17,261 bases of DNA from an uncultured Verrucomicrobiota bacterium (GCA_964521805.1 CAZFSE010000039.1:1-17261), one strand, 5' to 3'; numbered from the stretch's first letter, positions 952-15,762 are shown. Numbers and translations are program-made. Notes: generated by a model not told the origin, from the sequence alone.

Positions 952-2574
952 CTATTTGAAGACCAGCGGGCTGAAGATGATCCAGAAGGCGAGGATCACG
1001 GCGCCGAGCAGGATGCTCAGGCCCGCGTTAAACTTGTCGCCCAGGTCCGTGGCCACCTCCTGTTTATCGGCCTGGAAGAGGGCGAGATTCTGCGCGGAGG
1101 GGGCCTGGGTGAAGAGGCTGACGGCCACCAGCAGGACGGAGGAGGCCAGGAAGAGCAGGACGGCAAAGTGCAGGAAGTTGATGGTGGCGAATTGCACGAG
1201 GAGCGGGTGGCCGGTGACCCAGCCCCATTCGCTCTTGTAGCCCAGCTCCGCGACGAAGCGCAGGGCGCCCATCGCAAATCCGCAGAGGAGCGCGGTCAGC
1301 GCGCCTTGTCCGTTGAGCCGTTTCCAGAGCAGTCCGAGGATGAAGACGGCGGCGATGGGGGGCGAGATGTAGGCCTGCACGGATTGCAGGTAGACATAGA
1401 GCTGACTGCTCATGCGCCCGATGAACGGGAGCCAGAGCACGCCGACAATCACCAGCACGACGGTGACGGCCTGCCCGGCGCGCACCAGTTCGCGCTCGCT
1501 GGCCTTGGGGCGGTAGTTGCGGTAGAAATCCATGACGGCGAGTGTGGAACTGCTGTTGAATACGCTGGAGAGCGAGCTCATCAGCGCGGCCAGCAGGCCG
1601 GCGACGACCAGGCCCTTGATGCCGGAGGGGAGCAGGCTTTCCACCATCTTGGCGTACATGTTGTTGGGGGCGGTGTCGGCAAAGAGGATGCGGCCCGCGA
1701 GGCCCGGCAGAACCAGGATGAAGACCGGGAGGATCTTCAGGAAGCCGGCAAAGATGGTGGCGGTGCGGGCGGATTTGAGGTTGTCGGCGGCGAGGGTGCG
1801 CTGGACGATCATCTGGTCGGTGCACCAGTACCAGACGCCGAGGATCGGCGCGCCAAAGAGGATGCCGGTCCAGGGGAAGTCAGGATCGCTGACGCTCTTC
1901 CAGACGGAGAAGAAGGAGGGCGGAAGTTTTTCCACGAGGCCGGAGAGCCCGCCCACGGCGGGCTGGCTGAGCGCGGCGATCGTCAGGATGACGCCTCCGC
2001 CGATGAGGATGAAGGCCTGGATGAAGTCGGTGTAGATCACGGCGCGCAGGCCGCCGAAGGCGGTGTAGAGGCCTGTGGCGACGAGCAGGACGATGGCGCC
2101 CACGTACATGTTCCAGCCCAGGATGGTGTTGAGCACCAGCGCGCCCGCATAGACCGCGACGCTGACCTTGGTGAAGATGTAGGCGATCAGTGAGATGGCG
2201 GAGAGATAATTCCGGCACCCGCGGTTGTAGCGGCGCTCGAGGAATTCCGGCATCGTGAAGACGCCGGTGCTCAGGTAGAAGGGGACGAAGAACCAGCCGA
2301 GAATCAGCAGGATGAAGCAGGCCAGCCATTCAAACTGGCCGACGGCCAGTCCGCTGGAGGCGCCGCTTCCGGCCAGCCCGATGAAATGCTCGGCAGAGAT
2401 GTTCGAGGCGAAGAGGCTGGCGCCAATGGCCATCCAGCCGATCGAGCCGCCGCCCAGAAAGTAGGCTTTGGAATCCGCCTGGCTTTTCTTGCTGGACCAC
2501 CAGCCGATGAAGCCGACCACCGCGAAATAGGCGAACAGAATGACCACATCCAGCACAGACAGTTTGCCGAGCAT
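952..2574 (-). CDS. Sodium:solute symporter (SSS family), SGLT-like Na+/sugar cotransporter
   Basis: The 540-aa multi-TM protein has an N-terminal region, YFLGGGSIGWMAIGASLFASNISAEHFIGLAGSGASSGLAVGQFEW...TMPEFLERRY...YIFTKVS, that closely resembles the SGLT1/vSGLT signature region (established knowledge of the SSS family). Confidence 0.9.
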   Translation of the reverse strand: MLGKLSVLDVVILFAYFAVVGFIGWWSSKKSQADSKAYFLGGGSIGWMAIGASLFASNISAEHFIGLAGSGASSGLAVGQFEWLACFILLILGWFFVPFYLSTGVFTMPEFLERRYNRGCRNYLSAISLIAYIFTKVSVAVYAGALVLNTILGWNMYVGAIVLLVATGLYTAFGGLRAVIYTDFIQAFILIGGGVILTIAALSQPAVGGLSGLVEKLPPSFFSVWKSVSDPDFPWTGILFGAPILGVWYWCTDQMIVQRTLAADNLKSARTATIFAGFLKILPVFILVLPGLAGRILFADTAPNNMYAKMVESLLPSGIKGLVVAGLLAALMSSLSSVFNSSSTLAVMDFYRNYRPKASERELVRAGQAVTVVLVIVGVLWLPFIGRMSSQLYVYLQSVQAYISPPIAAVFILGLLWKRLNGQGALTALLCGFAMGALRFVAELGYKSEWGWVTGHPLLVQFATINFLHFAVLLFLASSVLLVAVSLFTQAPSAQNLALFQADKQEVATDLGDKFNAGLSILLGAVILAFWIIFSPLVFK

Positions 2575-2695
2575 GAGCGCCTCCTTATTGGGTCAGAACA
2601 CGGGAAGGGAGTCTAGGGACTTTTCCCCGCCTGCTCAAGCGCGCATTTTGGGACGTCTCCGCGCGAGGCTGTAGGGGCTACGCCAGCCTTAAGCA

Positions 2696-2714
2696 CCACC
2701 GCGCAAGGCGGTGG
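2696..2714. promoter_or_regulatory. Perfect 7-bp inverted repeat ccaccgc-gcaag-gcggtgg in the intergenic region between the CHAD gene end and the symporter gene start; candidate operator or RNA stem
   Basis: The palindrome was read directly. A degenerate direct copy, caccactgtgcaaggcgg, lies at 2743-2760. No U-tract follows on either strand, so it is not a classical intrinsic terminator. Confidence 0.3.
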
Positions 2715-2737
2715 GATGGGGAGGGACGTCGCCAGAT

Positions 2738-3655
2738 TTAATCACCACTGTGCAAGGCGGGGCGGAGGGCGCGCTGGACGTCTTTCTGGAAGGAGGGTTT
2801 GTTAAAATGCTTCCAGGCCTTTTTAAACTCGGCGAGATGGCTGGCTCGCTCTTTCCGAAGCTGGCGGAGAAGCTTCCGGGGGGGGATGAATTTTTGGCGG
2901 CGGAGAAGGCCGCACCAGACATCGCGGTCGTGGATGCGGCCCAGGGCGGCCTGCATGCGCTTAAGTCGCTCGCCGAGTTCGGGGACGGGCCCGCCCAGCC
3001 CTTCGCCAAAGTAGTCGCACAGGTAGCGGGCCTTGCGAATGGCCCGGCGCAGGTGGTGTGCCTCCTCGGGCTCATAGCGCTGGCAGAGGGCATGGCGTTC
3101 GCGCACGCGGCTCAATGCCTTGCGAATGGCCTTGGTTTCCAGCACGGAAAGATCGCCCTTGGCCTCGTGGAAGGCGGCGGGAATTTCCGCCTGCAACAGG
3201 CGGTTCATCCCGGCCTTCCAGTTCCGGCAGGCCGCCGAGGCCAGCAATCGTTTCATGCGTTCTTTTTGCCGGAACTTGAGGGACTCCTGTCTTCGCAGAA
3301 AGGCGGCCCAGGCGGCCGGCGTTTTGCCGGGATTCTCCGGGGCGTTGCTGTTCAGGAAGAGCATCCATACATCCAAATCCCGCGCCGGTCCGAGGGCCTT
3401 GCCCAGGCGGCGGACGGCCGTTTCCATGCGGGCGGCGGAGGTGGCGGTCAGGGGCGTGCGGAAGGTGCGCAACAGCAGGGCCAGGCGGCGGATGGCGACG
3501 CGCAGGTCGTGCAGGGGCATGCTCTGCCCCTGAAGCACGCCGGGCTCGCTGGCCAGCGCCCGGCGGTATTCCTGGGCGATCAGGCGGCGCGCCTCGCACA
3601 GCGCGTGCCGCCGCCCGGCGGCCGGCTTCGTTTTGCTGGGGCGGCGCGTGCTCAT
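2738..3655 (-). CDS. CHAD-domain protein (conserved histidine alpha-helical domain, polyphosphate-associated)
   Basis: The protein is arginine-rich and all-helical-looking, with an HDLRVAIRRLALLLRTF segment matching the CHAD H-x-LR[VI]-x-[LI]RRLR pattern. Its ATG overlaps the ppk stop codon (ATGA), which implies translational coupling to ppk. The opposite-strand ORF 2711..3796 is Gly/Ala-rich and is rejected as a shadow frame. Confidence 0.7.
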   Translation of the reverse strand: MSTRRPSKTKPAAGRRHALCEARRLIAQEYRRALASEPGVLQGQSMPLHDLRVAIRRLALLLRTFRTPLTATSAARMETAVRRLGKALGPARDLDVWMLFLNSNAPENPGKTPAAWAAFLRRQESLKFRQKERMKRLLASAACRNWKAGMNRLLQAEIPAAFHEAKGDLSVLETKAIRKALSRVRERHALCQRYEPEEAHHLRRAIRKARYLCDYFGEGLGGPVPELGERLKRMQAALGRIHDRDVWCGLLRRQKFIPPRKLLRQLRKERASHLAEFKKAWKHFNKPSFQKDVQRALRPALHSGD

Positions 3656-5766
3656 GACTGGGCGGAGGGCCGCTCCGGCTCAAAGACGTTCATCTCCGCT
3701 TTGCGCGCGGCGCGGGAGGCCTCACAAGCTTGCTGGTACAGCGTTTCCTGGCATCGCTGGGCTTTTTTCTTGCCGGATGGCTTGACGCGGACATAGGCGC
3801 CATCGGCCTGCAGTCGGCGGGCCTTGGCGCTGTCCTTGAAGCAGGCTTCCAAAATGCCGACCAGCTTGCGCGCGCAGGCAGGATCCTCGACGGGAATCAG
3901 CAGTTCAATGCGCCGGTCCAGATTGCGGGGCATCCAGTCCGCGCTGGACATGAAGGTGAGCGACTCGCCGCCATTGTGGAAATGGAAGATGCGGCTGTGC
4001 TCGAGGAAGCGGTCCACGATGCTGATGACGGAGATGTTCTCGCTGACACCGGGCACGCCGGGGCAGAGACAGCAGACGCCCCGGATATTGAGCTGGATCT
4101 GGACGCCGGCCTGGGAGGCCCGGTAGAGGGCCTGAATGAGGGCGGGATCGGCCAGCGAGTTCATCTTGGCCAGGATGCGGGCCTCCTGTCCCTGCTGTTT
4201 GCGGGCGATTTCATTTTCAATCAGCTCCAGCACGCGGTTGCGCAGGCCGATGGGGGCGGACTCGATTTTCCGGTATTTGATGGGCTGGGAGTAGCCGGTG
4301 ATGGTGTTGAAGAAGGCGGAGGCGTCCGCGCCGTAATCGGGGTGGCAGGTCATGTAGCTGATGTCGGTATACAGCTTGGCGGTGCGCTCGTTGTAGTTGC
4401 CGGTGCCGAAATGAATGTAGCGGCGGATGCCGGCGGATTCCCGGCGGACGATGATGCAGATCTTGGCATGGGTCTTGAGGCCCTTCAGCCCGTAGATCAC
4501 CTGCACGCCGGCGTGTTCCAGCGCGGTGGCCCAGCTGATGTTGCGGGCCTCGTCAAAGCGCGCCTTGAGTTCGACGACGACGGTGACGTGCTTGCCCTTG
4601 TCGGCCGCGCGGGCCAGCGCGGCGACGATGGGGCTGTTCTCGCTGGTGCGGTAGAGGATCTGCTTGATGGCCAGCACCTCGGGATCGTCGGCGGCCTCTT
4701 CGAGGAAGCGGACGATGGGGTCGAAGCTCTCATACGGATGGCACAGGAGCAGATCCTGGCGGCTGAGCAATTCAAAAAGGGATTCGCCCGCGACGGTCTG
4801 CGGGGGCTCCTGCGGGGGCCAGGGGTCGAGCTTGAGGGTCTCGAAGCCGGTGGTGGAGGCCAGCCGGAAGCAGGCCGAGAGGTCCACGAGGCCGGGGATG
4901 GGGTAGACATCCTCGTCGCGCAGGTTCAGCATGGTCTTGAGATAGGTCAGGGTGGTGGGGGAAATGTTCTGGCTGATCTCCAGGCGGACACAGCCGCTGA
5001 GTTTGCGCTCGGTCAGCACTTCCTTCATCTTGTCGAGGAGGTCGCCGGCGAGATCTTCGCGGACGCTCATACCGGCGTTGCGGGTGATGCGGAAGGGCAC
5101 ACATTCGGCGACGGGTTCGCCGGGGAAGAGCTGGCTGGCGAAGGCGGAAACCAGATCCTCAACCGGGATGTAGTGATAACCGGATTCCGAGGGGACCGTG
5201 ACAAAACGCGCCAGGCCCCGCGGAATGGCGATGACCGCGAACCGTGGGGTCTGGTCGCTTTCGCGCGGATTCTTCAGGCGGACGAAGAGATTGAGACCCA
5301 GCCCCGGCAGGATGGGGAAGGGGTCGTCCAGGTCAATGGACATGGGGGTGATGACCGGAAAAATCTCATGCTCGAAGAGCAATTGCACGTACATGTCCTG
5401 CTGGGCGGCCAGGTCGCCCATGGCCAGCCGGCGGAGGCCGGCGGAGGCCAGTTTCGGCTCAAGCTCCTTGAGCAAACAGGCCTGCTGATCGGCGACCATT
5501 TGATGCGTGATGCGGCTGATTTCGGCCAGCTGTTCGGCGGGCGTCAGCCCGGATGGGTCGCGGACTTCCTTGCCCTGTTCGAGCAGTTGCTGAAGCCCGC
5601 CCACGCGGACCATGAAAAACTCGTCGAGGTTGGAGGCCGTGATGGCCAGAAATTTCAGGCGCTCCAGCAGGGGGAGGGTGGCATCGAAGGCTTCCTCCAG
5701 CACGCGCCGGTTGAAGGCCAGCCAGCTGAGTTCGCGGTTGATGAAGGGGGCCTGTTCAGTACGCAT
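3652..5766 (-). CDS. ppk: Polyphosphate kinase 1 (PPK1). The start is chosen at MRTEQAPFINRELSWL; the longest ORF start at 5832 would overlap ppx.
   Basis: N-terminal FINRELSWLAFNRRVLEEA...LERLKFLAI..SNLDEFFMVRV is a PPK1 N-domain signature. The size (about 700 aa) and the C-terminal PLD-like regions are consistent with PPK1. The gene lies 10 nt downstream of the ppx stop. Confidence 0.9.
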   Translation of the reverse strand: MRTEQAPFINRELSWLAFNRRVLEEAFDATLPLLERLKFLAITASNLDEFFMVRVGGLQQLLEQGKEVRDPSGLTPAEQLAEISRITHQMVADQQACLLKELEPKLASAGLRRLAMGDLAAQQDMYVQLLFEHEIFPVITPMSIDLDDPFPILPGLGLNLFVRLKNPRESDQTPRFAVIAIPRGLARFVTVPSESGYHYIPVEDLVSAFASQLFPGEPVAECVPFRITRNAGMSVREDLAGDLLDKMKEVLTERKLSGCVRLEISQNISPTTLTYLKTMLNLRDEDVYPIPGLVDLSACFRLASTTGFETLKLDPWPPQEPPQTVAGESLFELLSRQDLLLCHPYESFDPIVRFLEEAADDPEVLAIKQILYRTSENSPIVAALARAADKGKHVTVVVELKARFDEARNISWATALEHAGVQVIYGLKGLKTHAKICIIVRRESAGIRRYIHFGTGNYNERTAKLYTDISYMTCHPDYGADASAFFNTITGYSQPIKYRKIESAPIGLRNRVLELIENEIARKQQGQEARILAKMNSLADPALIQALYRASQAGVQIQLNIRGVCCLCPGVPGVSENISVISIVDRFLEHSRIFHFHNGGESLTFMSSADWMPRNLDRRIELLIPVEDPACARKLVGILEACFKDSAKARRLQADGAYVRVKPSGKKKAQRCQETLYQQACEASRAARKAEMNVFEPERPSAQS

Positions 5767-7363
5767 GGGGCACCTGGTCGGCTTCCGCCCGGAATTCCTG
5801 CAGGACCACGGGCAGTCCATAGATCTCCTCAAAGAGATTGCCCTTTTCCTTGACCGCGAGCCGCTCCATGGTCAGATCTTCCACATCCTTGACGGTGATG
5901 AGCAGGCGGTCGGGCTCGCGGGTGAACAGCAGGTGGCGGGTCTGCTGGGTATGGTTGCGGTCGAGGGCATCGGCCACGCGCAGGATGGCCGCCATCTTGG
6001 AGACCACGATGCGCCCGTCCCGGTCCAGCGCGCTGAATTCGGGATGGGTGAGATTGGGCATGGCGCGGCGGTGGTAGCGGGCGGTCAGCGCGATCAGGGT
6101 CATGTCCGCGCGCGTCAGGCCAAAGAGGTCGCTGTTGAGGATCAGATACATCGAATGCTTGTGATGGCTTCGACTGCTGACGTAGCCGCCGGCCTCATGA
6201 ATCAGCGCGGCGGTTTCGAGGAGCAGGCGGTGGCGCTGGTCGAGCTGATGCTCGGCTTTCATCTCGTCGAACAGGGCCAGCGAGACGTCCGCCACATGGC
6301 GCGCATGTTTTTCATCCACATGGTATTTTTGCCCCAGCACCAGGGCGGACTGAATGACCTGCTGGGCGAACGTGGGGCTCCAGTAGCCGAGCAGGGCCAT
6401 TTCCCGGAGCAGGCCATCCCGCAGGCTGGCCTTGGGAATCAGCAGTTGGTCAATTTTGAAGGAGCGGGCGAGGTGGGTGTAAATCAGCAGGGCCGGTCCG
6501 ACGGTTTCGGCCTCTGAATAGGTCAGCTGGTATTTGCTGACCAGTTTTTCAACGGTCAGCGGCAGGAGCTTGTCCACAAAGGCGGTAAAGGTTTTGAGGT
6601 CGAGGCGCGCGGTGGGCGCGGTGGCCCAATCGGCGCAGAGCTGGGCGGCGGCGAATCGCGAATCGCCCGACATGGCGACCAGCACGCCGGGTTTGGCGGG
6701 CGGGAGGTTGCGCTTGAGTTGTGCGATCAGGCGCTGGATATGCTGGCCGAGAATGGAGCGGGCGCGCTCCGGGGGGATGCGCTGGGTCTCCAGGTTTTCG
6801 CGCATGCGCAGGGAGCCCAGGCGGTAGGAATCGGAAAACGTGACGTAGCCATTTTGCACCAGCAACAACTCGGTGCTTCCGCCGCCGGCATCCGCCACCA
6901 GCACATCGGCGTCCTTGAGCGCCGGATCGTTTTCAAGAAGGTTCTGGGCGGCCATATAGGTCAGCCGGTTCTCCTCGGCCTCATCAATGGCGCGGACGTT
7001 GATCTGGGTGGAGACATAGACGCGGTTCAGAAAGGTGTCCCGGTTTTCCGCCTCGCGGACGGAACTGGTGGCGACGGCCTGAATCTGGTCGGGGCGGTTG
7101 ATGCCGTACTCGTCGAGGATGCGCCGAAATCCGCGCAGGATCTCCACGCACTTCTTGATATTTTCCTGCCGGATGCGTCCCTTGGTGAAGGTATCCTTGC
7201 CAAGGTCCAGAGGCCGGCGCACGGTTTCCAGGGTGCGGATGCCCTGCGTTTCGTTGATTTCCGCGATCTCCATGCGGACGGCGGTGGCGCCAATGTCGAT
7301 GACGGCTACCAGGCGGGGCGGAGGCGCGGAGGGTTTGGTGCTGGTTGGAGGAAGGGTGCTCAT
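5756..7363 (-). CDS. ppx: Exopolyphosphatase / guanosine pentaphosphate phosphohydrolase (Ppx/GppA family). The longest ORF extends to 7426, overlapping the ROK gene.
   Basis: An actin-like ATPase fold start, LVAVIDIGATAVRMEIAEI, and a DAGGGSTEL motif are present. The C-terminal HD-like region contains IHEAGGYVSSRSHHKHSMYLI. The internal Met at 7363 (MSTLPP...) leaves a 19-nt gap to the ROK stop and has GGAAAG upstream. Confidence 0.85.
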   Translation of the reverse strand: MSTLPPTSTKPSAPPPRLVAVIDIGATAVRMEIAEINETQGIRTLETVRRPLDLGKDTFTKGRIRQENIKKCVEILRGFRRILDEYGINRPDQIQAVATSSVREAENRDTFLNRVYVSTQINVRAIDEAEENRLTYMAAQNLLENDPALKDADVLVADAGGGSTELLLVQNGYVTFSDSYRLGSLRMRENLETQRIPPERARSILGQHIQRLIAQLKRNLPPAKPGVLVAMSGDSRFAAAQLCADWATAPTARLDLKTFTAFVDKLLPLTVEKLVSKYQLTYSEAETVGPALLIYTHLARSFKIDQLLIPKASLRDGLLREMALLGYWSPTFAQQVIQSALVLGQKYHVDEKHARHVADVSLALFDEMKAEHQLDQRHRLLLETAALIHEAGGYVSSRSHHKHSMYLILNSDLFGLTRADMTLIALTARYHRRAMPNLTHPEFSALDRDGRIVVSKMAAILRVADALDRNHTQQTRHLLFTREPDRLLITVKDVEDLTMERLAVKEKGNLFEEIYGLPVVLQEFRAEADQVPHAY

Positions 7364-7382
7364 GGTGTTCTTTCCGGCGCCC

Positions 7383-8354
7383 TCACCGGCCCGAGGCCAG
7401 CGCCGCCGCGCCCATGACCACGGCATTGTCGCCCAGGCGCGCCGAGGTGACTTTCAGGCCTTTCTGAAAGGCCGGCATGGCCTGGTCCTTGATGGCGGCG
7501 CGCACTTCCTTGAGGAAGAGCGAAGGCATGGCCTCCACCAGTCCGCCGCCGAGAATAATCAGATCGGGAGCGAGCAGATTCACGGCGCCGGAGATGCCGG
7601 CGCCGAGTGTGTACGCCGCCTGGCGGACGATGATCTCCACCGTCTTGTCTCCGGCCCGGATGGATTTGGCCAGCACGCCGCTCTTGATGTCCCGCAGATG
7701 GGTGCCCGCCAGTTTGTACAAGGCGGGCGCTTCGCCCCGGTAGGCGGCCATGGCGGCATCCGCCGAGATGGCCAGCCGGCTGGCGACCGCTTCCAGACAC
7801 CCGCGCTGGCCACAGCCGCAGAGCCGCCCGTTGGGTTGCACCTGGATGTGGCCAATCTCCATGCAGGAGCCCACTTTTCCGCGCAGGAGGTGGCCCTCAT
7901 AGACACAGGCGCCTCCGATTCCTGTTCCTGGAAAGACCCCCAGCAGGCAACGGGCCTCCTGGCCCGCCCCGAAACGGTATTCCCCATACGTCCCGGCATC
8001 CACGTCGTTGGCAATGATGGCGGGACATTTGAACTGCTTCTCCAAGGCGGCTTTGAGGCGCACATGTTTCCACCCAAGATTTGGCGCATGAAGGATGATG
8101 CCCCTGTCCAAGTCCAGCGGCCCGGGGCATCCGATGCCAATGCCCCCCAATTGCCGGGCTGTGATCTGGGCCTCCTGAAGGGCCTCCTCGATCGTCTGAA
8201 CGATGCGATCCATGATGCCGGCGGCGCCATCCTGCCCCCGGGTTCGCGCCCGCCGGGATCCCTTGATCTTGAATTGGCGGTCGAAGACGGTGGCCATCAT
8301 CTTGGTGCCGCCCAGGTCAAAGCCCAGCCAGCAGGTCTTGGATTTTGCGGTCAT
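7383..8354 (-). CDS. ROK-family sugar kinase (glucokinase-like)
   Basis: The N-terminus carries GFDLGGTK (ATP-binding DxGGT). The ROK zinc motif is present as GHIQV...CGCGQRGCLE. There is no N-terminal HTH, so this is the kinase type rather than the repressor type. It is first in a co-directional array with ppx, ppk and the CHAD gene. Confidence 0.8.
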   Translation of the reverse strand: MTAKSKTCWLGFDLGGTKMMATVFDRQFKIKGSRRARTRGQDGAAGIMDRIVQTIEEALQEAQITARQLGGIGIGCPGPLDLDRGIILHAPNLGWKHVRLKAALEKQFKCPAIIANDVDAGTYGEYRFGAGQEARCLLGVFPGTGIGGACVYEGHLLRGKVGSCMEIGHIQVQPNGRLCGCGQRGCLEAVASRLAISADAAMAAYRGEAPALYKLAGTHLRDIKSGVLAKSIRAGDKTVEIIVRQAAYTLGAGISGAVNLLAPDLIILGGGLVEAMPSLFLKEVRAAIKDQAMPAFQKGLKVTSARLGDNAVVMGAAALASGR

Positions 8355-8386
8355 CAGATTCCTTTCGGAGGACGGGGGAGCGGGGT

Positions 8387-8995
8387 TTAAGGCGCCCGGA
8401 CCACTTCAATGATCTCCACCGTTTCCGCCGGCACGTCGCTCATGCCCGCCTGCCGCCCTGTCTTGACGGCCCGAATCTGATCCACCACGTCCAGGCCTTC
8501 CACCACCTGGCCAAACACGCAGTAGCCAAATCCCTGCGGGTTGGGGGCGGTGTGGTTCAGAAATTCGTTGTCCACCACGTTGATGAAGAACTGGCTGGTG
8601 GCGCTGTCAATGACGCCGGTGCGGGCCATGGCGATCGAGCCCCGCTTGTTTTTCAGCCCGTTGGCGGCCTCGTTCTTGACGGGCGACCGCGTGGGTTTTT
8701 GCTCCATCTCCTTGGTGAATCCGCCCCCTTGAATCATGAAATTGGCAATGACGCGGTGAAAGATGGTTCCGTTGTAATGCCCGTCATCCACATACTTCAA
8801 AAAGTTTTCGACGGTGAGGGGGGCGCTTTTGGGATCGAGTTCGATCTTAATGTCGCCCTTGGATGTTTTCATGATGACCATGGGATTGCTCTCCTGTGGG
8901 GTGGTTTCTTCTGTTTCTTTGACTTCTTCCGCCAGCCCATTGCAAGCCAGCAGTGCCGCCAGTCCGGTGGCGGCCAGTGTTCTGATGTATGTCAT
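8387..8995 (-). CDS. Cyclophilin-type peptidyl-prolyl cis-trans isomerase, exported (lipoprotein-like signal)
   Basis: The protein contains cyclophilin motifs: HRVIANFMIQGGGF, GSIAMAR and FFIN. An N-terminal signal peptide with a lipobox-like LLAC is present. A strong AGGAGG sequence lies 4 nt before the ATG, on the complement of 9001-9006. Confidence 0.85.
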   Translation of the reverse strand: MTYIRTLAATGLAALLACNGLAEEVKETEETTPQESNPMVIMKTSKGDIKIELDPKSAPLTVENFLKYVDDGHYNGTIFHRVIANFMIQGGGFTKEMEQKPTRSPVKNEAANGLKNKRGSIAMARTGVIDSATSQFFINVVDNEFLNHTAPNPQGFGYCVFGQVVEGLDVVDQIRAVKTGRQAGMSDVPAETVEIIEVVRAP

Positions 8996-9171
8996 GGGAC
9001 CTCCTGAATGCCGCAGTTAACAAAGTCCGGGCATAGTATCTGATTGCCGTGTTTGGCTCAAGTTAGAGTTTTGCAAGGTTTTGCCGCAGAGTTCAGGGGG
9101 TTCCATCTTTCTGCTTGCCGTCAGGGGGGGGACTCGATGAAACTGCGAGCAGGTCGAACAATGTGGCATTC

Positions 9172-10746
9172 ATGTACAGACTTATCTTTTTAAATGGCAA
9201 GCACAAGGGCCGGCGGCTGGTGGTTCATCAGGGTTCCATCCTGATTGGCCGTGATCCGGAATGCCATATCCACCTGGCGGACGACGATGAGGTTTCACGA
9301 CGGCATGCGGTGCTGGAGGAGCGCACGGACGGCATTTATGTCAACGATCCGGGGTCTTTGAACAAGATCCTGGTGAATGACCAGGAGATTCGGGAAGCGC
9401 TCTTGAAGGCCGGCGACATCCTGCAGTTGGGGAAGACGCGCATTCAGTTTCAGGAGGCTGAGCCCTTGCCGCTACAGGAAGAGCGCCGCATCGGGATGAT
9501 TCAGCGGATGACCTTTGCCTCGGTGGCTCTGGTCCTGTTGTTGGAGGCACTTTTCCTGATTGGTCTTTCCGTCTGGCACCAGGAGCAATTTGTGGAAGAA
9601 CGCCCACTGCCGGAGTTGAGTTCCACCTCCGGGGTGGCGGCCGTTTCCGCTGGGGTTGAGAGCAACGTCCTGGAGCTGGCGGACGATCAGGACGCCGACC
9701 TGATGGCGGCGGCGGAACGGCTCAAGCATTTGGAGGAAGATGCCCTTGAACCCGCCCCGCCCGCCGGGCCGGAGACCACCGGGGCGTTGTCATCCGTGTC
9801 GGAGGAACTGCGAAAACTGCGGCAGGACGTGGCGGAGATCCGCGAAAAAGTGCAGGGAATGGCGGTCAGCTCCAATGAGGAGGCCCTGGTCGAGGCGCCG
9901 CCAGAGGAAGATCCTGTCCCGGTGGCCCAGAAGGAGCAGGACGCCCTGGAGGCCCGGGCGCGCCAGATGCTCCAGGAGGCCCAGCTCGACATCCAGCGCA
10001 TGAATTTGATCCAGGCGGACCAGCAGTTGGAGCGCATTCAGATCATGGCGCCGGATTTTCTGCCGGCGTATGTGGAACGGGCCCGCCTGCTGGAGCGCCG
10101 TGGCCTGCTGAAGAAGTCGGGCGAGCAGTGGACCCATGTGATGAACCGGAGCATGGGCACGCCTCTGTACCAGCAGGCCGCCGCGGAGCGCATCCGGATT
10201 TCGCGCCAGGAGATGGTCCAGACGGGGCTGAAGACTTCCGCCCGGTCGGATGACGAGAACGTGCTGGCGAAGCTTCCCCGGCTCATCCGGATCACCGACA
10301 TTGAGCATCAGAAGTTCCCGGGCAACGAGCAGTTCGATGAAATGCGCCTCCTGCGCATTATGGTGAAGGTCAAGCCCGGGGAAAAAGGAATCGTGGGCAA
10401 CGATGTGTATGTGGTGGTGAATTTCTTTGACCGCTCCAAGGAAAGCGGACAAATCAGCCTGTCCGGCGCGGTCGTTCCCAAGGAGGCGCTGACCCTGGAA
10501 GGCCCCCTGGAGGCCGGCGCCCAGCGGACGCTGACCGCCGCCTACATTGTGCCCAAAGGGTTCCGAAAGACCGAGGCCGCGCAACAGGGCGAGGAACGCA
10601 ATTACTTTGGCTATGCCGTGCGGGTGCTTCATCGGGACAGCTTGCAGGACGAAGAGGCCAAGCCGAGGATCTTGCTAAAGGAGCGCATTGAGCCGCCCTC
10701 GTCCAGCCTGCCAGGCCTTCCGGTCAGCCCTCCGCCGGCTTCCTAA
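9172..10746 (+). CDS. FHA-domain membrane protein: N-terminal FHA, one TM helix, an acidic/Ala-Pro-rich coiled-coil region, and a C-terminal uncharacterised beta-rich domain
   Basis: FHA hallmarks (GR...C.I.L....VSRRHA....DG.Y.V.D.GS.N...VN) appear in the first ~100 aa. A hydrophobic segment, MTFASVALVLLLEALFLIGLSVW, follows. The start at ATG 9172 puts the FHA domain about 10 aa from the N-terminus. The upstream TTG/GTG alternatives lack an RBS, so the start is uncertain. Confidence 0.7.
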   Translation: MYRLIFLNGKHKGRRLVVHQGSILIGRDPECHIHLADDDEVSRRHAVLEERTDGIYVNDPGSLNKILVNDQEIREALLKAGDILQLGKTRIQFQEAEPLPLQEERRIGMIQRMTFASVALVLLLEALFLIGLSVWHQEQFVEERPLPELSSTSGVAAVSAGVESNVLELADDQDADLMAAAERLKHLEEDALEPAPPAGPETTGALSSVSEELRKLRQDVAEIREKVQGMAVSSNEEALVEAPPEEDPVPVAQKEQDALEARARQMLQEAQLDIQRMNLIQADQQLERIQIMAPDFLPAYVERARLLERRGLLKKSGEQWTHVMNRSMGTPLYQQAAAERIRISRQEMVQTGLKTSARSDDENVLAKLPRLIRITDIEHQKFPGNEQFDEMRLLRIMVKVKPGEKGIVGNDVYVVVNFFDRSKESGQISLSGAVVPKEALTLEGPLEAGAQRTLTAAYIVPKGFRKTEAAQQGEERNYFGYAVRVLHRDSLQDEEAKPRILLKERIEPPSSSLPGLPVSPPPAS

Positions 10747-11323
10747 ACGAACAGCGCCCAATGGGCGTATGCTGGATGTAGTAGAGCTCGAAATCCGTTT
10801 TTTCCGCCTCTTCCGGTTCAAAGGGCGGAATTTCCTCAAACCGGCGGTCATTTTTCAACACCGCATGGACCTCCTCGAAATAGGGCAGGTGGTCCGTCGC
10901 AAAATGAAGGTCCGCCCCGGGTTTCATGGTGCGAAAGACCGCATCCAGAAAAACGGGATTGAACAACCGGTGGTCGTGGTGGCGCTTTTTGGGCCAGGGG
11001 TCCGGGAAGAAAATGTAGAAGGTGCGGACGGAATTGGGCGGCAGGAGGTAGGCGACCGCGTAGTAGGCGTCCATCCGGAGCAAACGGATGTTGTCCAGGC
11101 CGCGATGGCGGGTCTTGTTGTCCACCTTCCGGATGCGCCGGAGCATCCGGTCAATGCCGAGAAAGTTGGTGTCCCGGTGCGCGGCGGCCCTGGCCAGCAG
11201 AAAGCGGCCCTTCCCACAGCCGACATCCACCTCCAGCGGGCGGGCGTCAAAATACTGCTCCAGCGGAAGGGGCCACAGCCAGTTGTCGGGCACGATCCGC
11301 ACGCTTTCGGTTTTGTTTTGCAT
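10724..11323 (-). CDS. trmB: tRNA (guanine46-N7)-methyltransferase TrmB
   Basis: SAM-binding VDVGCGKGRFL is present, and the TrmB signature FFPDPWPKKRHHDHRLF matches FPDPWxKxRHxKRR. The start is chosen at MQNKTES (11323); the longest ORF to 11635 would run into the divergent mevalonate kinase gene. Confidence 0.85.
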   Translation of the reverse strand: MQNKTESVRIVPDNWLWPLPLEQYFDARPLEVDVGCGKGRFLLARAAAHRDTNFLGIDRMLRRIRKVDNKTRHRGLDNIRLLRMDAYYAVAYLLPPNSVRTFYIFFPDPWPKKRHHDHRLFNPVFLDAVFRTMKPGADLHFATDHLPYFEEVHAVLKNDRRFEEIPPFEPEEAEKTDFELYYIQHTPIGRCSFRKPAEG

Positions 11324-11423
11324 GGCGTTCCGGTCTTTTTGAAGTGACGCAGTGTAAGCGGTGAAATCTGGCGGGTCAACTGTCGGCTGGACTTTATCCA
11401 GGGAAAGCGTAGGCTGATCCCTT

Positions 11424-12428
11424 ATGAAAGCGATTGCTCCAGGCAAATTAATCCTCAGCGGCGAACATGCGGTGGTGTATGGCAAGCCGGCCTTGGTCAC
11501 CGCCATCAACCGGAATGCCCAAGCCATCATTACCCCGGAGGCGGGGGACGCGATTTCCTTTGACCTGCCCGATATCCAGCAGAATGGGTCATTCACCCTG
11601 CGCGCCATCCGCGAGATGGCCAGCCGCGTGGCCAAGAACTACCGCCTGTTTCTGGATGGCGAGCTGGGCATCCGCGAAGTCCTGCACAAGCCGCTCGATT
11701 TGTTTGAGTTTGCCTTTATCACCATCTTGGATGGATTGCACCTGAAAGTGGCCGATGGGCTGAAAATTCAGATGCATTCCAATATCCCCATCGGATGCGG
11801 CATGGGCTCTTCCGCGGCCAGCATCGTGAGCGTCCTGCGGGCGGTCGGCCATTATTTCCGCGTCGAGTTTCGCCCGGACTGGTACTACAAATACAGCCTG
11901 GAGGTGGAAAACCTTCAGCATGGCCATTCCAGCGGGGTGGATTCCTATATTTCCCTGCATGGCGGGTGCGCCCGTTTTCAAAATGGCTCGGCCCAGAAAC
12001 TGCCGCTTCCCCGGGCGCCGATGTTCCTGGTGCAAACTGGCGTGCCGCTGACCACCACCGGCGAGTGTGTCGTTCAGGTGGGCAAAACCTTCGGAAAGAG
12101 CGCCATCTGGGACGATTTTGAGGCTGTCACGCTGGGGTTGGAAAAGGCGCTGGCGCAAAACGATTTGACGGCCATTCAGCAGTGCCTGCGGGAGAACAGC
12201 CGCTTGCTGGCCTCCATCGGCGTGGTCCCGGAACGAGTCCAGGCGTTTGTGGCCGAGGTCGAGCAGTCCGGTGGCGCCGCCAAGGTGTGCGGGGCCGGGG
12301 CCGTGGCGGGCGGCCAAGCTGGCGTGGTGCTGGTGGTGGGCGAGAAGGCCCCGGTGGAAATCTGCAAGAAATATGGGTATGAGCTCATGACGGTCCGTGG
12401 CGAACCTCTGGGCGCCCGAATCGTATAA
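11424..12428 (+). CDS. Mevalonate kinase (GHMP kinase family)
   Basis: N-terminal APGKLILSGEHAVVYG is a classic mevalonate-kinase motif. The GHMP P-loop is PIGCGMGSSAAS. Length is 334 aa. Confidence 0.7.
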   Translation: MKAIAPGKLILSGEHAVVYGKPALVTAINRNAQAIITPEAGDAISFDLPDIQQNGSFTLRAIREMASRVAKNYRLFLDGELGIREVLHKPLDLFEFAFITILDGLHLKVADGLKIQMHSNIPIGCGMGSSAASIVSVLRAVGHYFRVEFRPDWYYKYSLEVENLQHGHSSGVDSYISLHGGCARFQNGSAQKLPLPRAPMFLVQTGVPLTTTGECVVQVGKTFGKSAIWDDFEAVTLGLEKALAQNDLTAIQQCLRENSRLLASIGVVPERVQAFVAEVEQSGGAAKVCGAGAVAGGQAGVVLVVGEKAPVEICKKYGYELMTVRGEPLGARIV

Positions 12429-12442
12429 ACACCGTTTCCCGC

Positions 12443-13375
12443 ATGTCCAAGACCTCCATTCGAGCCTCTGCGCCCGGCAGTCTCATGTTGATGGGCGAGC
12501 ATGCCGTTCTTCATGGCCATCCGTCGCTGGTGTGTGCTGTCAATCGGCGCATGGTCGTGACCCTGTCCTCCCGTTCCGATTCGTTGCTCCATATTCAATC
12601 GGCCCTGGGAGAGTACACAGCGCCCCTGGAGGCGCCGGCCCCTGATCCCCGGTTTCGTTTTGTCCTCGCCGCCCTGGCCCGCCAAAAAGAAGTGCAGGGC
12701 GGGCTTGATCTCGTGATTGAGTCCGAGTTTTCTCACACGGTTGGCCTGGGCTCCTCGGCGGCGGTCACCGTGGCCCTCCAGGCGGCCCTGGACCTGTTCC
12801 TGGGCAAGCCCCTGGATGCGCGCCGGGTGTTTGAGGCCTCCCGAAGCGTGATTCGCGAGGTCCAGGGACTGGGCTCCGGCGCGGATGTCGCGGCCAGCGT
12901 CTATGGCGGCATCGTAGCCTATCGCGCTGATCCGCTGGAGATCGAATCCCTGCTCGCCTCGCATCCCGTCACAGTGATTTATTCAGGCAGTAAAATGCCG
13001 ACCGCCGAGGTGGTGCGGAAGGTTCAGCAACAGCGGGAACAGCGCCCGGAGCTGTTTGATGGCATCTTCAGCCTGATGGGACAGAGCGTCCCGCACGCCG
13101 TAGAGGCCATTCGTGTGGGCGATTGGGCCTCATTCGGCGCCCTGCTCAATCTCAATCAGGGCTTGATGGACGCCCTTGGTGTCAGCAATGCCCGGCTCTC
13201 GGAAATTGTGCACGCACTCCGCTCCGATCCCAACATCCTTGGCGCCAAGATCTCCGGCTCCGGGCTGGGCGATTGCGCCATCGGCCTGGGGGCCTCCGCG
13301 CGGAAGGACTGGCCCTACGAAGTCCTCCCCGTCTCCATCACGAATCGTGGCCTTCTGCAAGACGAACCAGGCTGA
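12443..13375 (+). CDS. Second GHMP kinase, mevalonate-kinase-like (could be a phosphomevalonate-kinase equivalent or an MK paralogue)
   Basis: N-terminal APGSLMLMGEHAVLHG is present and the GHMP P-loop is VGLGSSAAV. It starts 14 nt after the upstream kinase gene. From memory, bacterial ERG8-type PMKs carry GEYA rather than GEHA at this position, so the PMK assignment is not secure. Confidence 0.55.
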   Translation: MSKTSIRASAPGSLMLMGEHAVLHGHPSLVCAVNRRMVVTLSSRSDSLLHIQSALGEYTAPLEAPAPDPRFRFVLAALARQKEVQGGLDLVIESEFSHTVGLGSSAAVTVALQAALDLFLGKPLDARRVFEASRSVIREVQGLGSGADVAASVYGGIVAYRADPLEIESLLASHPVTVIYSGSKMPTAEVVRKVQQQREQRPELFDGIFSLMGQSVPHAVEAIRVGDWASFGALLNLNQGLMDALGVSNARLSEIVHALRSDPNILGAKISGSGLGDCAIGLGASARKDWPYEVLPVSITNRGLLQDEPG

Positions 13376-13602: not shown

Positions 13603-13716
13603 TGCGAAGCGGAGCGCGATTTTTTCCGCTATGCCGGTTTGACCCAGCGGGAGGTCGCTGGCACATTAGGCGTCGGTAGTGGGGCGGCGATCAGTCATCA
13701 GATGAGAAAGCTGAGC
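13603..13716 (+). pseudogene. Fragment resembling the C-terminal region 4 (HTH) of an ECF sigma-70 family factor, with no N-terminal part present
   Basis: The translation ERDFFRYAGLTQREVAGTLGVGSGAAISHQMRKL fits the ECF sigma region 4.2 pattern (ER.VF.LRY..GL...EIA..LG...GTVKSRL.RAR). An in-frame TGA lies immediately upstream at 13600-13602, and only about 225 nt separates it from the preceding gene. The fragment is in frame with the downstream amidinotransferase ORF, probably by chance. Confidence 0.3.
13618..13645. repeat. Left copy of an imperfect direct repeat flanking the low-G+C islet (gattttttccgctatgccggtttgacc)
   Basis: It pairs with 15106-15133, gattttctttccgcaatcggtttcaatg, sharing the blocks gatttt / ccgc / ggttt in the same order. 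Similarity is roughly 65-70% with small gaps, and could be chance. Confidence 0.25.
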
Positions 13717-13890
13717 TCGTGTATTGAGAACGACCAGTCGCTGAAACGATCCGTCAAGGATATTGAACGTCGGATGGATTGGCAGAGGGGAAAGAAGGAA
13801 AACAATATGCTAAGTACTAAACTCAGGGTGCCCCCAATACCGCCGCCGCCGAAAAGAAAACCTGCCGGTCTGCGCCGGCTTAGTTCAACC

Positions 13891-13896
13891 AGGAGA
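13891..13896 (+). promoter_or_regulatory. Shine-Dalgarno sequence AGGAGA, 6 nt upstream of the amidinotransferase ATG
   Basis: aggagagatgtcATG, read directly from the sequence. Confidence 0.6.
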
Positions 13897-13902
13897 GATG
13901 TC

Positions 13903-15039
13903 ATGAAAAATGTGATCGTAGTTTTATACACGTTGCTAGCGTTCGGATGGTTTCCAGTTTCCACCCGATCAGCAAACGCAGTGGAACCTTCTGTTTGTGT
14001 AGATTACGAATATGGCGATCTGAAGGAGGTGATTGTCGGCCTGCCGTATGGCATGTCGCCTTCGCTGGAAGCGAAATGGTTTGCCGACGCGCTCAAAGTA
14101 CTGCCAAAAGATGAAGCGGATTACGCCCGGCAGACAGCGGGGATGCTCTGGACGGAGATGATCAATCCCGAAACGGAGAAAAGCGAGACGATGATGCTGG
14201 AAGAGGAAAATCAGGCTTTCATCAAAATTTTAAAGTCTCTGGGCGTCAAGATTTACCGTCCGACGGAGATTACCGTCGACTTTATCAGAAAACATTACGG
14301 ATCGGATGTGCTGCTCAATGGTTTCAGTCAGGACTTTCCTCGCGACAACATGGCCGTGATCGGCAACAACGTCATCGAGTTCAATTTGCGGACACCGATT
14401 CGCAAGGTGGATATATCCGGATTCCGGGATATTCTGTCTGAAAAATGTTTCGACTCGACGGTCAAGTGGTTTTCCATGCCGCACACGGAACTTCTTAAGC
14501 CCGCTCGTGCAGATTCACCGTTTCTGGAAGGCGGCGACGTCATCGTGCTGGGTAGAACCGTTTTAGTCGGCAATACAGAAAATCCCAGCGTAGGATCCAA
14601 TGAGGCCGGCTACAAGTGGCTCAAAAACATTTTAGGCGATCAATATAAGGTGAAACGCGTTCGGCTTGTAGAAAGCGTGCTACATCTGGATTGCGTGCTT
14701 TCCGTGCCGCGCAGTGGGCTCGCCATCATCTGCGAAGAAGCATTCATCGACGGCTTGCCCGAAGAGATCAAGGACTGGGACCTGATCAGAGTGAGCTTGG
14801 AAGATGTCAAGCGACTGGCCGTCAACGGCCTTCCCGTCAATTCCAAGAACTACATTTTGTCTTATAACCGGCACAATGACAACCGCTACATCCAGGCCGA
14901 GCTCGAAAAGCGGGACATCAGAGTCCACCGCGTGTTTTTCGGAACCCACAATGGCCAGGGGGGATCGTTGCGCTGTGCGACCCAGCCTCTTAAGCGAACG
15001 GTCAAGATGACGAAAGCGCGCGAAAGTCAAAGAAAGTGA
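13903..15039 (+). CDS. Amidinotransferase of the AGAT/StrB1 family (L-arginine:glycine/inosamine amidinotransferase-like, guanidino-group-modifying enzyme superfamily) with a predicted N-terminal Sec signal peptide
   Basis: Block-wise resemblance to glycine amidinotransferase: DLKEVIVG corresponds to the NEWDPLEEVIVG block, and ILKSLGVKIYRP to ILKTEGVTVRRP. FPRDNMAVIGNNVIEF corresponds to MPRDILIVVGNEIIEA. The catalytic His and Cys blocks LHLDCV and GQGGSLRCATQ correspond to MHIDATF and GGGFHCWTCD. The N-terminus MKNVIVVLYTLLAFGWFPVSTRSANA-VEP has a K-containing n-region, a hydrophobic core and an AXA site. A strong RBS is present. The gene lies in the low-G+C segment. Confidence 0.75.
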   Translation: MKNVIVVLYTLLAFGWFPVSTRSANAVEPSVCVDYEYGDLKEVIVGLPYGMSPSLEAKWFADALKVLPKDEADYARQTAGMLWTEMINPETEKSETMMLEEENQAFIKILKSLGVKIYRPTEITVDFIRKHYGSDVLLNGFSQDFPRDNMAVIGNNVIEFNLRTPIRKVDISGFRDILSEKCFDSTVKWFSMPHTELLKPARADSPFLEGGDVIVLGRTVLVGNTENPSVGSNEAGYKWLKNILGDQYKVKRVRLVESVLHLDCVLSVPRSGLAIICEEAFIDGLPEEIKDWDLIRVSLEDVKRLAVNGLPVNSKNYILSYNRHNDNRYIQAELEKRDIRVHRVFFGTHNGQGGSLRCATQPLKRTVKMTKARESQRK

Positions 15040-15105
15040 AGACAAGGGGTGGGGGGGCACTCATTAGAGGATTCGGTAAAGAAATAGAACGTGTTCATAA
15101 AGCTG

Positions 15106-15133
15106 GATTTTCTTTCCGCAATCGGTTTCAATG
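15106..15133. repeat. Right copy of the imperfect direct repeat flanking the low-G+C islet
   Basis: See the left copy at 13618-13645. This copy lies between the amidinotransferase stop and the nfeD-like gene start. Confidence 0.25.
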
Positions 15134-15156
15134 TCCGTTGTAACCGGGAGGATTTG

Positions 15157-15729
15157 ATGACTGAATTCTTTGGATCGCTGACCACGGTGGAAAAAATCTA
15201 TGCGGCGTGCGCCCTTTTTGGGGGCATTCTTTTTGTGATTCGCACGGTGCTGATGTTTTTGGGGCATGATGGCGCCGATGACCTGGGTGGAGACGTCAGC
15301 GACGTTCATGGGGGCGACGCGGATGCAAGTTTCAAGGCGCTTTCCCTGCAAAGCCTGACGGCCTTTTTCATGATGTTTGGCCTGGTGGCGATGACCTTGT
15401 CAAAGCAGACCGGGGTGGGGCATGGCTGGGCGATTCTGGGGGGCGTGCTGGCGGGGCTGTTCACGGTCTGGGTGATTGGCCGGCTGTTTCTCGGGATGAA
15501 AAAATTGCAGTCGGATGGAACGTTGCGCGTGGAGAATGCAATAGGTCAGGAGGGGGAGGTTTACCTGACCGTGGCGCCTGGCAAGACCGGGCAGGTGCGG
15601 GTGAGCGTGCAGGGGCAGTTGAGGGTGTTCGACGCCGCCACCGAGGGCGCGGCGGAATTGAAGACCGGCACCCGCATCCGCGTGGTGCGCGTCACCGGTG
15701 GAAATGTCTTGATGATCGAAAAAGTGTAA
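15157..15729 (+). CDS. NfeD-like membrane protein (YuaF/YqiJ type, stomatin/flotillin operon partner) with a C-terminal OB-fold-like domain
   Basis: The protein has N-terminal TM helices, an acidic D/G-rich loop, further TM segments, and then a C-terminal G.EG.V...V.PGKTGQVRV..QGQ......A....I..GTRIRVV.V.G..L.IE.V pattern typical of NfeD short homologues. GGGAGG lies 5 nt before the ATG. It is followed within 33 nt by the flotillin gene. Confidence 0.7.
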   Translation: MTEFFGSLTTVEKIYAACALFGGILFVIRTVLMFLGHDGADDLGGDVSDVHGGDADASFKALSLQSLTAFFMMFGLVAMTLSKQTGVGHGWAILGGVLAGLFTVWVIGRLFLGMKKLQSDGTLRVENAIGQEGEVYLTVAPGKTGQVRVSVQGQLRVFDAATEGAAELKTGTRIRVVRVTGGNVLMIEKV

Positions 15730-15762
15730 GCAAGAGAGCAAGCAACCAAGGGAGTGTGCAGT

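Follow-up and report, generated by a model that had tools for sequence, protein, structure and literature searches.

The 17,261-nucleotide (nt) stretch of DNA from an uncultured Verrucomicrobiota bacterium analysed here (GCA_964521805.1, CAZFSE010000039.1:1-17261; hereafter the window) carries a polyphosphate (polyP) operon in which a ROK-family sugar kinase of a distinct clade is encoded directly in front of the exopolyphosphatase gene ppx, followed by the polyphosphate kinase gene ppk1 and a CHAD gene. Operons of ppx and ppk with CHAD or SixA genes, ROK glucokinases and polyP glucokinases (PPGKs) were all known; a polyP operon with a dedicated ROK kinase of a clade of its own was not met with in the literature searched. 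The best reading of this arrangement, judged from sequence comparisons, would be an ATP-site hexokinase that is functionally coupled to polyP turnover, and we give this reading about an even chance of being correct.

The minus strand of the window holds six co-directional genes between positions 952 and 8995, whose products were assigned with the Pfam and NCBIfam profile libraries. At the centre stand the genes for the ROK-family sugar kinase (7383..8354, minus strand; PF00480; 323 amino acids), a Ppx/GppA exopolyphosphatase of the long form with domain III (5756..7363, minus strand; PF02541 and PF21447; 535 amino acids), the PPK1 polyphosphate kinase (3652..5766, minus strand; TIGR03705 and four Pfam domains; 704 amino acids) and a stand-alone CHAD protein (2738..3655, minus strand; PF05235; 305 amino acids). 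They are preceded by a gene for a cyclophilin-type peptidyl-prolyl isomerase (PPIase; 8387..8995, minus strand; PF00160, 1.2e-48) and followed by one for an SSF sodium:solute symporter (952..2574, minus strand; PF00474 with 313 bits, TIGR00813 with 387 bits). The four central open reading frames (ORFs) had been recognized in an initial annotation made from the sequence alone, and both the profile libraries and independent gene calls support them; when a second copy of the contig was annotated with an independent gene caller, the starts of ROK, PPX, PPK1 and CHAD came out the same. As read from the sequence, 32 nt separate the PPIase stop from the ROK start. The ROK stop at 7383 lies 19 nt from the ppx ATG at 7363, or the two genes overlap by 44 nt if the alternative ATG at 7426 is used, and ppk1 and the CHAD gene share an ATGA at 3652-3655; on these junctions the initial annotation was right. 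The 10-nt gap it had placed between ppx and ppk1 is in fact an 11-nt overlap (ppx TGA 5758-5756, ppk1 ATG 5766), because the ATG at 5766 is the sole in-frame start near the ppx stop; the longest ppk1 ORF, from a TTG at 5832, would overlap ppx by 77 nt. The CHAD gene and the symporter gene are 163 nt apart.

The ppx-ppk1-CHAD portion of this cluster is a familiar polyphosphate operon, with an unambiguous PPK1, a CHAD protein and tight co-directional joins (+19, -11 and -4 nt, counted from the ROK gene). PPK1 scores 852 bits with the equivalog model TIGR03705, above the cut-off of 466, contains all four PPK1 Pfam domains and shows the motifs HAK433, GTGN454 and SADWMPRN608. The best solved relative of PPX is the exopolyphosphatase 8jgo (residues 18-522, E 1.8e-44) and its DAGGGSTE motif is present; with the polyP-only model TIGR03706 it reaches 164, the cut-off being 307, so that its specificity for polyP versus pppGpp is not set by this model. 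The CHAD protein (PF05235, 1.8e-35) has the CHAD structure 6qv7 as best solved match and is strongly basic, with 66 lysine and arginine residues and 28 aspartate and glutamate residues. CHAD domains bind polyP and are found in polyP operons (PMC6537752); the window CHAD protein is, by prediction, a polyP-binding or granule-associated module.

The linkage of the ROK gene to ppx is conserved far beyond the window. The closest ROK homologs, 55-71% identical, come from Lentisphaerae, Verrucomicrobiota, Kiritimatiellia, Planctomycetota, Acidobacteriota (Terriglobales, Aminicenantes) and some Proteobacteria. Gene order was scored by tblastn with the window proteins in 80 species-representative loci, the denominators being the loci with enough flanking sequence; since longest-ORF calls in GC-rich loci were noisy (antisense ORFs), tblastn coordinates and the gene calls of the sequence collection were used instead. 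The ppx gene lies directly 3' of ROK on the same strand in 47 of 73 loci, the order ROK-ppx-ppk1 is found in 33 of 62 and the complete order ROK-ppx-ppk1-CHAD in 12 of 51. By the taxon labels of the records, ROK is followed by ppx in 16 of the 18 informative Verrucomicrobiota loci, in all informative loci of Kiritimatiellia, Victivallales, Aminicenantes, Terriglobales and Schlesneria, in about half of the remaining Planctomycetota loci and in no proteobacterial locus. The genes are closely packed, with a median ROK-to-ppx gap of 26 nt and a median ppx-to-ppk1 distance of -4 nt, and in seven loci, labelled Aminicenantes, Terriglobales, Verrucomicrobiota, Pirellulaceae or Planctomycetota, the ROK stop and ppx start overlap by 4 nt. 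The same operon was seen in further contigs with the collection's own gene calls. That dozens of genomes, spread over several phyla, have this order with the genes tightly joined or overlapping is more than chance would give. The conservation of gene order in relatives, which the initial annotation had proposed as a check, is thus seen in 47 of 73 loci and in five or more phylum-level groups.

In a neighbour-joining tree for which three ATP-dependent glucokinases served as root, the ROK clade is monophyletic. The ppx-linked state is basal and occupies most branches, with losses in Pirellulales and in the proteobacterial subclade; on this tree the ancestral position of the clade is immediately 5' of ppx. 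The 26 loci without ppx revealed no other common neighbour of ROK beyond local synteny in Planctomycetaceae.

A gene for a SixA-like histidine phosphatase (PF00300) was observed 3' of ppk1 in six relatives (L012 9069-9596, L046 10677-11168, L052 14783-15289, L065 14771-15301, L069 16287-16796 and L077 14770-15261); it is not part of the window operon. In two further loci a SixA-like gene (PF00300) is divergent and lies 5' of ROK (L002 3445-4149, L008 9046-9750). PPK1 works through a phospho-histidine intermediate, and the pairing of a SixA-like phosphatase with ppk1 may therefore be functional.

The association of the two activities is closest in a covalent ROK::Ppx fusion, which came to light in a profile-free search that covered 1.8 billion representatives exhaustively. 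In P0150 (639 amino acids) a ROK domain at residues 14-326 is joined to a Ppx-GppA domain at residues 354-632. Seven sequence clusters of this ROK::Ppx-GppA type (P0150, P0271-P0276) measure 636-659 amino acids and share 71-100% mutual identity, and one of them is named Anaerolineae; three independent assemblies contain the fusion as an intact ORF. Its ROK domain aligns with the window ROK at 219 bits (about 41% identity), against 164 bits with the ATP-dependent glucokinase GlkA.

Directly 5' of the fusion gene stand two tandem genes named 'thymidylate kinase', which match the Sulfurisphaera (S.) tokodaii structures 2plr/5h70 at 1.3e-64 and 9.7e-38, whereas other thymidylate kinase structures match them at about 1e-16 or more weakly. 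Such tandem pairs were located in Chloroflexota-like genomes beside ROK::Ppx, CHAD and CYTH genes (L082 6233-7641, L084 6063-7441, L089 1558-3165). The S. tokodaii protein is described as a homolog of cPPK3, the catalytic subunit of the recently described heteromeric polyP kinase PPK3; PPK3 is encoded beside ppx, sixA and CHAD genes and favours the formation of ATP from polyP and ADP (PMC12995831). As the match to 2plr/5h70 lies far above that to true dTMP kinases, the tandem pairs are probably bacterial PPK3-type polyphosphate kinases, which would mean that the triad of ROK, Ppx and polyP kinase recurs with a non-homologous kinase.

Further ROK proteins are found in similar company. The L089 locus has the order CYTH, CHAD, PPK3-like pair, a gene for 732 amino acids without Pfam match, ROK and a PpxIII/HD protein, and in L090 a gene for a 464-amino-acid CHAD protein overlaps the start of a ROK::DUF498 gene by 4 nt (4610-7371). 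ROK proteins with a C-terminal DUF498 domain (PF04430) constitute a large group of about 450-475 amino acids (P0152, P0228, P0355 and many more) in Phycisphaerae and other groups. Another set of about 650-680 amino acids (P0151, P0167, P0193, P0197, P0217 and P0232) has two stretches that match the window ROK; P0151, the one scanned, consists of two tandem ROK domains and is about 30% identical to it. Taken together, synteny, translational coupling, the fusion and the links to CHAD and to a non-homologous polyP kinase uphold the proposal of the initial annotation that this ROK protein is tied to polyP metabolism.

These associations bear on the simplest alternative, that ROK is a housekeeping ATP-glucokinase which shares a promoter with polyP genes, the block being inherited or transferred without any biochemical coupling. 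The GlkA-like motifs and fold of the protein (see below) would suit such an enzyme, as would the equal conservation of its clade in Pirellulales and Proteobacteria, where it is unlinked. Since the operon of this lineage also includes a periplasmic PPIase that is unrelated, membership in an operon is by itself weak evidence. Against the alternative stand the persistence of the linkage, stop/start overlaps included, in five or more phylum-level groups, the covalent fusion to Ppx and the PPK3 and CHAD links of more distant ROK relatives; hitchhiking would need several independent origins to account for the fusion and the recurring associations, and we regard co-regulation without coupling as improbable.

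The window ROK is, on the sequence and fold comparisons, a zinc-motif sugar kinase of the GlkA/GlcK type that belongs to a distinct, highly conserved clade. PF00480 covers its residues 10-321 with 223 bits, and the protein shows the phosphate-1 loop DLGGT13-17, the catalytic pair N116-D117, the EIGH166-169 motif, the zinc motif CGCGQRGCLE179-188 and the nucleotide motifs GTGIGG and GGG. The phosphate-1, phosphate-2 and adenosine glycine motifs, the catalytic aspartate, the ExGH motif and the zinc cysteines are the same in three ATP-dependent ROK glucokinases; the motif set of the zinc-motif GlcK/GlkA type is thus complete and an N-terminal DNA-binding domain is lacking, as in that type. In phmmer searches the Streptomyces (S.) griseus GlkA was matched at E 8.6e-43 and the Arthrobacter PPGMK (1WOQ) at 4.8e-11, the latter with the N-terminal half only. 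BLASTP gave 34% identity to GlkA over 314 amino acids (E 1e-43) and 30% to 1WOQ over 105 amino acids (E 7e-11), with residues 72-173 aligned. When an AlphaFold2 model of the protein (pLDDT 89.5) was used as the Foldseek query, S. griseus GlkA ranked first, with a TM score of 0.85-0.88, and 1WOQ ranked 48th, with a TMq of 0.63.

On the basis of the ROK-family PPGKs, the initial annotation had suggested that the kinase uses polyP itself as phosphoryl donor. The analogy to known PPGKs fails on all sequence criteria. With the PPGK/PPGMK model NF045942 the window ROK reaches 51 bits, where 250 are required, query residues 10-173 being aligned to positions 3-157 of a profile of 242. Characterized polyP glucokinases lack the CXCGXXGCXE cysteine motif (PMC6406325), and they carry a phosphate-3 motif and conserved tryptophans (W193/W198 in Mycobacterium (M.) tuberculosis) after the ExGH motif (PMC4252912). 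The window ROK is not a short chain of about 240-270 amino acids free of the cysteine motif; it has 323 amino acids and CGCGQRGCLE, and no alignable counterpart of the phosphate-3/Trp region was detected in it, its sole tryptophans being W9 and W95. The low NF045942 score, the zinc motif and the missing phosphate-3/Trp region place the protein outside the known PPGK family. The initial annotation had further named a clustering with strictly ATP-dependent glucokinases as an argument against polyP use. The protein is indeed much nearer to GlkA/GlcK than to PPGK; it does not, however, nest among the three ATP-dependent enzymes compared and forms its own clade.

It could still be argued that the clade is a second, independently evolved hexokinase, polyP-dependent or bifunctional for polyP and ATP, perhaps docked to PPX or CHAD on the polyP granule. 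The repeated and varied polyP links (coupled ppx, the ROK::Ppx fusion, an overlapping CHAD gene, PPK1 or PPK3 neighbors) would be expected of such an enzyme, and the median net charge of the clade, +3 versus -10, -14 and -3 for ATP-dependent glucokinases, makes it the more basic group. Besides the PPGK features that it lacks and a fold nearest to GlkA, the distribution of the basic residues speaks against direct polyP use: of 25 clade-specific conserved positions, three (R50, R135 and R193) are basic, and a polyP-binding patch of basic residues, for which the initial annotation had proposed to look, was rejected as unconvincing. We consider direct use of polyP by such an enzyme doubtful. The broader conjecture, that the zinc-motif ROK clade, found widely in the PVC superphylum, in Acidobacteriota and, fused to Ppx, in Chloroflexota, may represent an unrecognized second class of polyP-driven hexokinases, either direct or acting through an obligate complex with Ppx/GppA, is advanced tentatively and at well below even confidence.

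Some database names describe proteins of this type as transcriptional regulators. This assignment was rejected for the window ROK, as it has no DNA-binding domain and the ROK domain begins at residue 10. A related idea would make ROK a sugar-sensing regulatory partner of PPX that tunes polyP degradation to the glucose supply. The ROK family includes sugar-sensing regulators (matches to Mlc and NagC were obtained), and PPX is the tightest conserved partner of ROK and is fused to it in one lineage. Besides the missing DNA-binding domain, the clade shows no variation in its catalytic and nucleotide-binding residues, which argues for selection on catalysis, and we hold a regulatory role to be highly improbable.

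An ATP-site hexokinase coupled to polyP turnover, the reading we prefer, could operate as follows. ROK would phosphorylate glucose or a similar hexose at an ordinary ATP site, both substrate and donor being deduced from conserved residues, and would be produced together with PPX, PPK1 and CHAD, possibly in a complex with PPX. A reversible PPK1, or a phosphotransferase side activity of PPX, would regenerate ATP from polyP and ADP; a polyP:ADP phosphotransferase activity was reported for the PPX of Pseudomonas (P.) aeruginosa (PMC4631893). The regenerated ATP would drive sugar phosphorylation, and lower glycolysis would receive the inorganic phosphate that PPX releases. In sum, polyP might power the priming of glycolysis, for example at low energy charge, with the same net reaction as that of PPGK.

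Several observations weigh against this scheme. The clade is equally conserved when unlinked from ppx in Pirellulales and Proteobacteria, so that its function is not strictly tied to a neighbouring ppx, and several Planctomycetota loci have ROK-ppx without ppk1. The tightest pair is ROK with PPX, which is also the fusion partner, and not ROK with PPK1; this makes ATP regeneration a weaker fit unless PPX makes ATP. Synteny and fusion would indicate coupling and do not tell which phosphoryl donor is used. With the ROK glucokinase subfamily model TIGR00744 the window ROK scores 200.4 bits, below the cut-off of 260.35, and because the clade falls under this cut-off, glucose is a presumed substrate.

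As to the limits of the operon, the initial annotation had regarded the packed genes as an operon-like unit with ROK as its first gene. Tight or overlapping junctions and the recurring gene order agree with such a unit, in which co-transcription is inferred. A generic promoter and terminator scan of positions 2400-9200 listed no minus-strand promoter- or terminator-like site at the internal junctions. The first place does not belong to ROK, since the cyclophilin PPIase gene sits 32 nt upstream on the same strand and is likely the first gene of the unit in this lineage. The N-terminus of the PPIase is signal- or lipoprotein-like (...AALLAC...), and of 73 related loci 11 have a PPIase gene directly 5' of ROK; each of these belongs to Verrucomicrobiota, Lentisphaerota or Kiritimatiellia. 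Upstream of it, a promoter-like element (9033..9067, minus strand) comprises the conserved 13-mer TCTAACTTGAGCC at 9055-9067, which includes a -35-like TTGAGC (9056-9061), and, after 17 nt, a -10-like TACTAT (9033-9038). L001, L005 and L087/L088 have the 13-mer TCTAACTTGWGCC without change at the same place as the window, 5' of the PPIase gene; the window contains a single copy, and the 90 fetched loci have it at no other site. The element was not listed by the generic scan because it is sub-threshold (8 of 12 matches), and it surfaced only on alignment with relatives. From its conservation, it is likely the promoter of the unit. PPIase, ROK, ppx, ppk1 and CHAD would accordingly be transcribed as one co-directional unit in a Lentisphaerota/Verrucomicrobiota-like host, a proposal that forms part of the overall explanation and shares its roughly even standing.

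At the other end, a 48-nt direct repeat is present in two copies (2673..2769; 75% identity, 49-nt spacing) that straddle the CHAD stop. The minus-strand copy contains a GC-rich hairpin (CCACCGC-cttgc-GCGGTGG), and no T-rich tail was seen at this repeat. An Rfam scan of the whole window gave zero matches, so that the spacer between the CHAD and SSF genes, with its repeat, is not a known RNA element. The repeat and hairpin may indicate where the unit ends on its 3' side. The symporter gene beyond it, which the initial annotation had described as lying immediately downstream, has its own AGGAGG ribosome-binding site in addition to its 163-nt distance and is missing from all 80 related loci; it was rejected as a member of the module.

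Compared with classical polyP operons (ppk-ppx of Escherichia (E.) coli; sixA-ppx-PPK3-CHAD of Sulfolobus acidocaldarius, PMC12995831), the window shows the same tight, co-directional arrangement of ppx, polyP kinase and CHAD, and the SixA-like phosphatase of these operons is present in relatives of the window. In contrast to them, the window and its relatives add ROK directly 5' of ppx, and in this lineage a cyclophilin heads the unit. The text of PMC12995831 on polyP gene neighborhoods names PPX, SixA, PhoE, CHAD, YjhB, MutT, PstC and PstS, and does not name ROK. A literature search found no description of a ROK-ppx-ppk operon or of a ROK::Ppx fusion, although the supplementary tables of PMC12995831, which list domains associated with PPK1, may include it.

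The PPGK/PPGMK enzymes (EC 2.7.1.63; M. tuberculosis, Arthrobacter 1WOQ, Anabaena All1371, Methylomonas) belong to the same ROK/ASKHA superfamily as the window ROK, and the phosphorylation of glucose at the expense of polyP is a plausible role common to both. They differ in chain length, PPGKs having about 240-270 amino acids and the window ROK 323, in the CXCGXXGCXE motif, which is confined to the latter, and in the phosphate-3/Trp region, which is confined to the former. S. griseus GlkA (3VGK), Enterococcus (E.) faecalis Glk (2QM1) and Thermus (T.) thermophilus hexokinase (3VOV) have the same catalytic, zinc, glucose and ATP motifs as the window ROK. Unlike them, the window ROK belongs to a separate and more basic clade, scores below TIGR00744 and lies within polyP operons. 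The Anaerolineae-like ROK::Ppx fusions combine the same pair of activities as the adjacent ROK and ppx of the window; they differ in being one polypeptide with only the two-domain Ppx core, and in having a PPK3-type pair in place of PPK1.

The rest of the window holds genes of other kinds. At its left edge an AbiEii-type nucleotidyltransferase toxin gene (type IV toxin-antitoxin/abortive infection) extends over 5-751 on the minus strand, with a possible partner ORF at 651-938. Divergent from the operon, 9115-10746 on the plus strand encodes an FHA/YscD-cytoplasmic-domain protein. A TrmB-like ORF at 10724-11635 (minus strand) has an N-terminal extension of about 130 amino acids without domain matches; since this extension runs into the beginning of the mevalonate kinase gene, the true TrmB-like start probably lies further downstream. 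The mevalonate kinase gene, in the plus-strand span 11424-13375, is followed by that of a second GHMP kinase. Between 13500 and 15000 the G+C content is 0.52-0.54, versus about 0.63 elsewhere in the window, and this stretch, which may be acquired DNA, includes a gene with weak arginine-deiminase/DDAH-like matches (13639-15039). It is followed by an ORF without Pfam match (15091-15729) and an SPFH/Band 7 gene (15754-17172).

Polyphosphate is a universal store of energy and phosphate. To our knowledge, few enzymes tap it directly for central metabolism, and the canonical PPGKs that we know of are found mostly in Actinobacteria and a few other groups. The presence of ROK in polyP operons of Verrucomicrobiota, Lentisphaerota, Kiritimatiellia, Planctomycetota and Acidobacteriota, and in fused form in Chloroflexota, suggests that polyP-primed sugar phosphorylation is possibly far more common. 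If a second class of polyP-driven hexokinases proved true, many environmental bacteria would start glycolysis from stored polyP and spare ATP. Whether the outcome is a new class of polyP-dependent kinase or a dedicated coupling module of ATP-kinase, PPX and PPK, it would be informative on the restart of glycolysis in starved cells and would offer candidate parts for ATP-free biocatalytic phosphorylation of sugars, in an enzyme family that is easily assayed.

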